Under the pieces are notes generated by a model. The model was given only the letters and a program-made list of their open reading frames with translations. It was not told where the DNA came from and searched no databases. A stretch of 64,000 nucleotides of DNA. It comes from Escherichia coli (lineage in GTDB: Bacteria > Pseudomonadota > Gammaproteobacteria > Enterobacterales > Enterobacteriaceae). Every line of letters begins with the position of its first letter. Position 1 is the stretch's first letter. Below are positions 37,135 to 39,146 of this stretch, piece after piece. Position numbers and translations under genes: made by a program. The stretch lies in the NCBI RefSeq assembly GCF_003334355.1, contig NZ_QOWP01000004.1; one strand, written 5' to 3'.

Positions 37135-37746
37135 TCATAACGCGGCGCGTAGGGCTTCGCGAATTAATGTTTCACTGCTGGCGTCAGGGCGAGCGATTTT
37201 GCTCACCATGCGGCTTGCTTCTTGTGGTTTATAGCCCAGCGCCACCAGCGCGGCAACCGCTTCCTGTTCAGCATCGTCGGTTGCCGGGCTGGCAGGTGAT
37301 GTGAGTACCAGGTCGGCGGCTGGCGTAAAGAGATCGCCATGCAGACCTTTAAATCGGTCTTTCATTTCAACAATCAAGCGTTCGGCGGTTTTTTTGCCAA
37401 TACCCGGCAGTTTCACCAGCGCCCCCACTTCTTCACGCTCAACGGCATTAACGAACTGCTGCGCTGACATTCCGGAGAGGATCGCCAGCGCCAACTTCGG
37501 GCCGACGCCGTTGGTTTTGATCAACTCTTTGAACAACGTGCGCTCTTGTTTATTGTTAAAACCGTACAGCAGCTGCGCGTCTTCACGCACCACAAAGTGG
37601 GTGAAAACGATCGCTTCCTGTCCCGCTTCAGGGAGTTCATAAAAACAGGTCATCGGCATATGCACTTCATAGCCTACGCCGCCCACTTCAATTAACACCA
37701 GCGGGGGTTGTTTTTCAATGATGATGCCTCTGAGTCTGCCTATCAC
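37135..37746 (-). CDS. ruvA: RuvA, Holliday junction DNA-binding protein
   Basis: 203-aa ORF starting MIGRLRG; first codon reads GTG. Confidence 0.93.
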
Positions 37747-37796
37747 ATGACGCTCCTGCGTAATGAATCAAAGATAATGCTGTATGATAAAAAAAT

Positions 37797-37814
37797 GCTG
37801 GATAGATATCCAGC
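37797..37814. promoter_or_regulatory. LexA operator (SOS box) of the ruvAB promoter
   Basis: gCTGGatagatatCCAGc palindrome about 50 bp upstream of ruvA. Confidence 0.75.
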
Positions 37815-38020
37815 GAAGGATGAAGAAAACTTGCGAGGTGTCTCGATGATCTGAAAAATGGCACAGTATAATTTATTCTACAGGTTATTTTGGAAGCAAA
37901 TATTTTAATATTACATATTCAGTGAAAAAATGCGTAATAAAAATATACATTGCGCCTCCTGAAAAAATAAATTTTTTATGCTATTACGTATATTCGTATC
38001 TATTTCAATGGAATGACAAC

Positions 38021-38623
38021 GTGAATATTAATTACCCTGCTGAATATGAAATTGGAGATATCGCCTTTACATGTATAGGTGCTGCCTTATTTGGTCAAAT
38101 ATCAGCTGCATCAAATTGTTGGAGTAATCACGTCGGGATCATTATCGGTCATAACGGTGAAGACTTCCTGGTTGCAGAAAGCCGGGTCCCCCTTTCAACC
38201 ATCACCACGCTATCTCGTTTTATTAAACGTTCTTCTAATCAACGCTATGCTATAAAGCGATTAGACGCTGGGCTGACAGAACAACAAAAACAACGAATTG
38301 TTGAACAGGTTCCCTCCCGGCTACGCAAACTTTACCACACCGGTTTTAAATACGAATCTTCGCGCCAGTTCTGTTCAAAATTTGTTTTTGATATTTATAA
38401 AGAAGCGCTATGTATTCCGGTGGGTGAAATAGAGACGTTTGGAGAATTGTTAAATAGCAATCCGAATGCAAAACTCACTTTCTGGAAATTCTGGTTCCTG
38501 GGTTCTATTCCGTGGGAGCGTAAAACCGTCACGCCAGCCAGTTTGTGGCATCATCCGGGTTTGGTGTTGATTCATGCGGAGGGAGTGGAAACGCCTCAGC
38601 CGGAACTGACCGAGGCGGTATAA
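38021..38623 (+). CDS. yebB: YebB, permuted papain-like (YiiX/YebB family) putative amidase, unknown function
   Basis: GTG at 38021 gives 200 aa (alternative GTG at 37922 would give 233 aa); conserved Cys (QFCSKFV) and His (NHVGIIIG) candidates. Confidence 0.65.
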
Positions 38624-38624
38624 C

Positions 38625-39146
38625 TTAACGCAGTCGCCCTCTCGCCAGGTTCAGCCGCGATTCGCTCATCTGCATCGCATTCTGACTAACGTGGCAGTGG
38701 GTGATGGCAATCGCCAGCGCATCGGCGGCATCCGCCTGTGGATTAGCGGGCAGTTTCAGCAAGGTGCGGACCATATGCTGCACCTGGCTTTTTTCGGCAC
38801 TACCAATACCTACCACCGTTTGCTTTACCTGACGTGCCGCGTATTCAAATACTGGCAACTCCTGATTCACCGCCGCCACAATCGCCACGCCGCGCGCCTG
38901 GCCCAGTTTCAGGGCTGAGTCAGCATTCTTTGCCATAAAGACTTGTTCAATGGCGAAATAATCAGGCTGGAACTGGGTGATGATTTCCGTCACGCCCGCA
39001 TAGATGAGTTTCAGACGAGACGGTAAATCATCCACTTTGGTGCGTATGCATCCGCTACCCAGGTAGGACAGTTGCCTACCTACCTGGCGGATGACGCCGT
39101 AGCCGGTCACGCGCGAACCCGGATCAATGCCGAGAATAATAGCCAT
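38625..39146 (-). CDS. ruvC: RuvC, Holliday junction resolvase
   Basis: ATG at 39146 gives 173 aa starting [18 protein letters not shown]. Confidence 0.93.

Follow-up and report, generated by a model that had tools for sequence, protein, structure and literature searches.

The described protein closest to the product of the locus studied here is Escherichia coli YebB (b1862), which is the same gene and from which nothing of substance differs. E. coli YiiX, whose structure is available (2IF6), shares about 25% identity with YebB, and demonstrated fatty acid binding is restricted to YiiX. Against the YiiX equivalog profile NF007458 YebB scores 77.3 bits, below the cutoff of 216, and it is therefore a paralogue rather than an orthologue of YiiX. 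Its alignment to this profile begins at position 22, the first ~21 profile positions being absent from YebB, while the aromatic motif F154-W155-x-x-W158-F159 ... P164-W165, kept in about 90% of the relatives, belongs to the YebB family and not to YiiX. Bacillus cereus BcPPNE (3KW0) has 18% identity to YebB and differs in its helical lid; it was crystallised in a closed conformation with a lysine at S1' (PMC3142127).

The LRAT/PLAAT (HRASLS) phospholipase A-acyltransferases are eukaryotic, carry a C-terminal helix as membrane anchor and match YebB with 16% identity over 92 residues; they are LRAT-like and thus constitute another family than the YaeF/YiiX-like YebB. The type VI secretion effectors TseH (6V98) and Tox-Act1 are secreted toxins with immunity genes in conflict-system neighbourhoods, whereas yebB has neither an immunity-like partner nor a neighbour conserved across taxa. 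Staphylococcus aureus LnsA and poxvirus G6R were assigned to the permuted YaeF/YiiX-like proteins by remote homology (PMC3142127, PMC7387801), and their likeness to YebB is taken from this literature description rather than from direct comparison. LnsA acts in fatty-acyl transfer to lipoproteins and requires LnsB, whereas yebB lacks a partner gene.

Within the window, i.e. the whole 64-kb stretch of DNA analysed, the segment 37747-38623 is yebB, an E. coli gene that was annotated before and whose family is already known. The elements that define the layout of the locus are:

37135-37746, minus strand: ruvA, left neighbour of the yebB segment
38021..38623, plus strand: yebB coding sequence, 200 aa, GTG start, TAA stop at 38621-38623; permuted NlpC/P60 protein (C92, YaeF/YiiX-like)
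38624..38627, no strand: convergent yebB/ruvC junction, where the stop codons of yebB (38621-38623) and ruvC (38625-27, minus strand) face each other
38625-39146, minus strand: ruvC, right neighbour of yebB

As the earlier note had proposed from the letters of the DNA, the gene is yebB, and by coordinates and orientation it lies on the plus strand and parts ruvAB from nudB-yebC-ruvC. Its product matches the NCBIfam model NF008547 ('YebB family permuted papain-like enzyme') with 406.3 bits (E 2e-122, cutoff 227) over profile positions 2-204 of 205, and belongs to this equivalog family. The identical locus of strain 214-4, whose DNA is 100% identical across window positions 37600-38800, carries the same RefSeq annotation with the same start codon. 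Of 5426 complete E. coli genomes, 5391 contain at least 80% of this 1.2-kb query at a single location; rows sampled over the ranking showed 95.7-99.1% identity, except for about 20 genomes with a divergent allele. YebB is 99% identical to the commonest protein cluster (P0001), and amino-acid polymorphisms are few. A single nucleotide separates the yebB and ruvC stops, the junction has no intergenic terminator, and a similarly tight arrangement exists in the Citrobacter FP75, Kluyvera georgiana and Pseudocitrobacter loci. The spacer between ruvA and yebB comprises 274 bp, is AT-rich and contains the small gene yobI, the ruvAB promoter and the LexA operator. A search of Rfam gave no family matches within 37747-38623, REP/naRNA4 units being located beside ruvB only.

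For the whole of these data we favour, with a probability of roughly 0.7, the reading that yebB and its AT-rich spacer form an old insertion, which encodes a thiol enzyme for fatty-acyl linkages and is weakly expressed independently of LexA. For the field this changes little: as a y-gene, yebB already has an annotation and an NCBIfam model of its own, and the structure of a paralogue has been solved.

Base composition sets the segment apart. In 300-bp windows the GC content is 0.317-0.43 over 37650-38550 compared to 0.51-0.57 in ruvB, ruvA and ruvC, and the segment as a whole has 39.9% GC compared to a mean of 51.0% for the window. A GC content this low is reached by just 0.9% of the 877-bp windows of the 64 kb, all of which overlap the yebB segment. 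Codon and GC statistics were based on the 59 ORFs of the window. The yebB coding sequence has 43.9% GC and a GC3 of 39.3% (z -2.5), the second lowest of the 59 with only yecT below, while GC2 is normal (z 0.07). According to this, the bias resides in codon positions 1 and 3 and not in amino-acid content. Codon adaptation relative to the window's own usage is mildly low (z -1.25, seventh lowest of 59).

The predicted protein has the features of a papain-like enzyme with a circularly permuted core. Pfam PF05708 (Peptidase_C92, MEROPS C92) matched with E 2.6e-44 over model positions 3-165 of 166, and the YiiX structure 2IF6 was matched with E 4e-17 and with the catalytic tetrad aligned. The codons of this tetrad are:

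38129..38131, plus strand: His37 (CAC), catalytic base, equivalent to YiiX His49 (alignment of the 'SHTG' motif)
38177..38179, plus strand: Glu53 (GAA), third triad residue, which orients the His, equivalent to YiiX Glu64
38333..38335, plus strand: Tyr105 (TAC), conserved NlpC/P60 Tyr at the oxyanion/P1 carbonyl position, equivalent to YiiX Tyr115
38372..38374, plus strand: Cys118 (TGT), nucleophile at the N-terminus of helix 118-130, equivalent to YiiX Cys128

The roles of the equivalent active-site residues were described for YiiX (PMC3142127). Across 109 aligned relatives, down to about 27% identity, H37, Y105 and C118 are each present in 108 and E53 in 105; among 30 close orthologues H, E and Y are present in all and C in 29. 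In the alignment to YiiX, His37 and Glu53 precede Cys118 in the sequence because the papain-like core is circularly permuted in the YaeF/YiiX-like branch. An AF2 model built from the 109-sequence alignment reached a pLDDT of 95.6 and a pTM of 0.90, superseding an earlier model from 30 close orthologues with a pLDDT of 67. The secondary structure of the model places Cys118 at the start of a helix, and the predicted fold is of the papain-like alpha/beta type, with the Cys at a helix N-terminus packed on an antiparallel sheet. The AT-richness relative to the ruv genes, the permuted papain fold of YiiX/YebB type and the candidate catalytic Cys and His, all suggested before on sight of the DNA, thus hold; neither GC content and codon usage like those of the neighbours nor a failure to match an HMM was found.

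The insertion is old. Providencia, Serratia and Cronobacter have a ruvC-ruvA gap of 84-144 bp with a LexA box and no gene inside, while in Escherichia, a Citrobacter, Kluyvera, Pseudocitrobacter, Superficieibacter, an Enterobacter and a Klebsiella this gap is occupied by yebB; Proteus, Providencia and Budviciaceae carry the gene at other sites. yebB together with its spacer is a compositionally odd insertion into the ancestral aspS-nudB-yebC-ruvC-ruvA-ruvB row. Atypical composition and patchy presence at a conserved site, as in a genomic islet, are both observed, and the content of the islet varies. The gene would have been inserted in part of the Enterobacteriaceae and held by purifying selection, never reaching the composition of its host, so that the AT-richness marks an insertion that is old and was never ameliorated, rather than a recent transfer.

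A recent arrival, for instance from the low-GC Morganellaceae, which is xenogeneically silenced and persists as a functionless passenger, would also account for several of these features. The yebB stretch has the lowest GC content of the window, the gene starts with GTG behind a weak Shine-Dalgarno (SD) sequence, and the ruvA-ruvC gap is variable, with other AT-rich ORFans in other genera and in about 20 of the 5426 E. coli genomes. The GC content of yebB is 0.08 under its flanks in E. coli and 0.026-0.145 under the flanks in all copies at the ruv site, while the Morganellaceae copies match their host (within ~0.05 of the flanks, -0.01 to +0.05). Nevertheless, we regard a passenger as unlikely. 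The dN/dS of yebB is 0.03-0.13 in nine comparisons, similar to nudB, which indicates purifying selection; the catalytic tetrad is retained throughout, the locus is present in nearly all E. coli genomes as given above, and the site and the tight ruvC junction are the same across seven genera. A neighbour-joining tree of YebB is congruent with family-level taxonomy, Enterobacteriaceae, Budviciaceae and Morganellaceae forming separate clades, and E. coli yebB is therefore not nested in Morganellaceae. Features of recent mobility were lacking as well: no integrase or transposase genes and no tRNA target are annotated near yebB, and there are no meaningful flanking direct repeats.

With respect to function, YebB is most likely, by analogy to its relatives, a cytoplasmic thiol hydrolase or transferase that works through an acyl-enzyme on a fatty-acyl linkage. 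Judged by homology and fold, Cys118 at the helix N-terminus is activated by His37, itself oriented by Glu53. Cys118 would then attack the carbonyl, the carbonyl oxygen being held by Tyr105, and the resulting acyl-thioester enzyme would be resolved either by water (hydrolase) or by an acceptor (acyltransferase). In the permuted relatives lipid specificity has been described (PMC3142127, PMC7387801, PMC12994826), and by extension the acyl group would be a fatty acyl chain in a hydrophobic S1 pocket. The relatives on which we base this are YiiX with its bound fatty acid, PLAAT/LRAT, the TseH/Tox-Act1 phospholipases, RID and LnsA. The substrate would accordingly be a lipid, amino acid or protein that bears an N- or O-linked fatty acyl group, and not peptidoglycan. 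An amino-acid- or peptide-directed amidase activity is possible, since the ligands bound by the relatives differ (a fatty acid in YiiX, lysine in BcPPNE).

YebB appears to be cytoplasmic, as its N-terminus contains no signal: the core begins at residue 10, and no hydrophobic segment was detected in the 9 residues that precede it, while 48 of the 109 aligned sequences do have one at the N-terminus, of signal or lipobox type. Its substrate would then lie in the cytoplasm or the inner leaflet; N-acyl amino acids, acylated proteins and phospholipids are examples. That YebB instead cleaves peptidoglycan as an amidase or endopeptidase, like the canonical E. coli NlpC/P60 proteins MepS/Spr, NlpC and YafL, could be argued from the shared superfamily and Cys/His/Tyr chemistry, the name 'amidase' that Pfam gives to the family and the lysine in the active site of crystallised BcPPNE (PMC3142127). 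We consider this quite improbable, as without a signal peptide or lipobox YebB has no reach to the cell wall, and the permuted relatives characterised in the literature consulted act on fatty-acyl linkages and have a hydrophobic S1 pocket (PMC3142127, PMC7387801, PMC12994826). The permuted order of the residues likewise departs from the canonical peptidoglycan hydrolases.

Biochemical, genetic or expression data on YebB were not found in the searchable literature, in which yebB is mentioned incidentally, and the literature searched assigned a physiological substrate to none of the bacterial YaeF/YiiX-like members. The substrate of the YaeF/YiiX/YebB enzymes is the one question of some value here, and YebB offers a convenient entry point, being apparently cytoplasmic and easily deleted in E. 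coli. Gene neighbourhoods were considered as a clue to function and rejected, as the neighbours in Proteus (LysR, VanW-like, Dyp peroxidase) and Providencia (MocR, TetR, creatinase-like) have nothing in common. PADLOC matched neither YebB nor the additional genes in the AST85 islet, leaving a role in anti-phage defence unsupported.

The spacer upstream of yebB carries the following control elements:

37784..37812, minus strand: ruvAB promoter-like site, -35 TGGATA (inside the operator), 17 nt, -10 TATCAT
37789..37814, minus strand: terminator-like element immediately downstream of yobI, consisting of a 7-bp RNA hairpin (-9.1 kcal/mol) made by the operator palindrome and a U7 tract behind it
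37798..37813, no strand: LexA operator of ruvAB, CTGGATAGATATCCAG, 16.4 bits, ranking second of 63,981 positions with the LexA matrix
37885..37950, minus strand: yobI, 21-codon small protein gene with 18% GC, 'stress response small protein YobI' in RefSeq
37959..37987, plus strand: predicted yebB sigma-70 promoter, CTGAAA 37959-37964, 17 nt, TATTAC 37982-37987 (PMC3946193)
37993..38019, minus strand: predicted yobI promoter, -35 TTGTCA 38019-38014, -10 TACGAA 37998-37993 (PMC3946193)

yobI, which the earlier note had missed, is annotated in every RefSeq row retrieved, and its start lies 70 bp from that of yebB. The box does lie in the spacer, as described in that note, but the nearest divergent partner of yebB is yobI and not ruvA; yobI has to be counted within the yebB control region. 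A genomic SELEX study with RpoD holoenzyme reported a peak in the yobI/yebB spacer together with the yebB promoter hexamers (PMC3946193), so that this promoter is a SELEX-plus-consensus prediction rather than a mapped transcription start. The predicted yobI and yebB promoters are arranged back to back and partly overlap; the -10 element of yobI reads TACGAA here and TACAAA in K-12. The ruvAB promoter-like site emerged from a promoter scan and is conserved in alignments A2 and A4. Taken together, yebB would be expressed alone and without LexA control, relying on a weak promoter, a GTG start and a weak SD.

Control of yebB by LexA through the divergent region, with co-induction of the ruvAB Holliday-junction machinery, had been hinted at in the earlier note. 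The ruvAB operator is indeed located in the same 274-bp spacer, and on the yebB strand a CTG-N10-CAG motif (37851-37866) is followed without a gap by a perfect TATAAT (37867-37872). Furthermore, yebB was predicted as a LexA target by network inference from two expression compendia and a nearby box (PMC2689187), a prediction that would contradict LexA independence if it reflected sense transcription of yebB. Nevertheless, we consider LexA control very improbable. The operator is invariant in alignments A2 and A4, but lies beyond yobI, ~145 bp upstream of the predicted yebB -35, and it keeps the same ruvA-relative position in Serratia, Providencia and Cronobacter, where no gene separates ruvC and ruvA. 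Candidate second boxes at 37778 and 37849 were discarded, as they reach 8.1 and 6.0 bits and the weakest of 18 known boxes 13.1 bits; the motif at 37851 has no CAG half in E. coli SCPM-O-B-8794 (A2). No LexA-like box was found within 350 nt upstream of 25 yebB homologues at other loci (maximum 8.8 bits). A box that overlaps or adjoins the gene's own promoter, as in the LexA regulon, is thus absent from yebB. Since the operator stays with ruvA and no yebB homologue elsewhere has a box, SOS coupling lacks support from the sequence; on this evidence the operator at 37798-37813 belongs to ruvA and not to yebB, and the link to the SOS response is positional only.

The hairpin formed by the operator, with a U6-7 tract, is kept in 9 of 10 taxa from three families. 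On a further reading the operator would serve in addition as the stem of an intrinsic terminator that insulates ruvAB, ancestrally from ruvC and in E. coli from yobI. If this is true, the yebB/yobI islet could insert without disturbing SOS control. That both hold at once, YebB removing or transferring fatty-acyl groups inside the cell and the ruvAB LexA operator doubling as an RNA terminator stem, is a doubtful combination which we put forward tentatively.

A plus-strand hairpin with T6 inside ruvC (38762-38785) was inspected as a candidate yebB terminator and rejected. It is dictated by conserved RuvC residues and occurs equally in Cronobacter, which has no yebB here, and is therefore no evidence for such a terminator. 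Likewise, yobI did not appear as a remnant of the ORFan membrane-protein genes of other genera: in a comparison that covered one ORFan protein, that of AST85 (188 aa), the alignment scored about as shuffled sequences (p ~0.27).

Two further elements concern the start codon:

37922..38020, plus strand: 33-codon upstream extension from the rejected GTG at 37922, non-coding for yebB, overlapping yobI
38010..38012, plus strand: GGA, weak Shine-Dalgarno-like, 8 nt before GTG 38021, invariant in A2

The start had been called ambiguous between two in-frame GTGs with no ATG. The inventory stands: the ORF contains no in-frame ATG, and ahead of the conserved core the only GTG or TTG codons in this frame are those at 37922 and 38021. 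The ambiguity does not, as comparative evidence settles the start at GTG 38021 (200 aa), which is also the RefSeq start. That the true product is a protein of 233 aa beginning at GTG 37922, with 33 residues for targeting or regulation, can hardly be credited, even though the frame is open from 37850, this GTG is its first canonical start and many distant relatives have N-terminal extensions, as the extension is conserved in no homologue (A1), runs into stop codons in four Escherichia loci (E. coli SCPM-O-B-8794, E. albertii, Escherichia sp. E1V33 and E. coli AST85) 4-11 codons ahead of the conserved GTG, is frameshifted by a 7-nt indel in SCPM-O-B-8794, starts within yobI in antisense overlap and upstream of the predicted yebB promoter, lacks an SD (anti-SD duplex +1.9 kcal/mol before 37922 compared to -3.3 kcal/mol at the GGA of 38021) and precedes an NCBIfam profile that begins just 4 residues ahead of residue 34. 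All homologues start at the alignment column of GTG 38021 (A1), and in the 8-genus spacer alignment (A2) the other genera have ATG or TTG in this column, after the invariant GGA.

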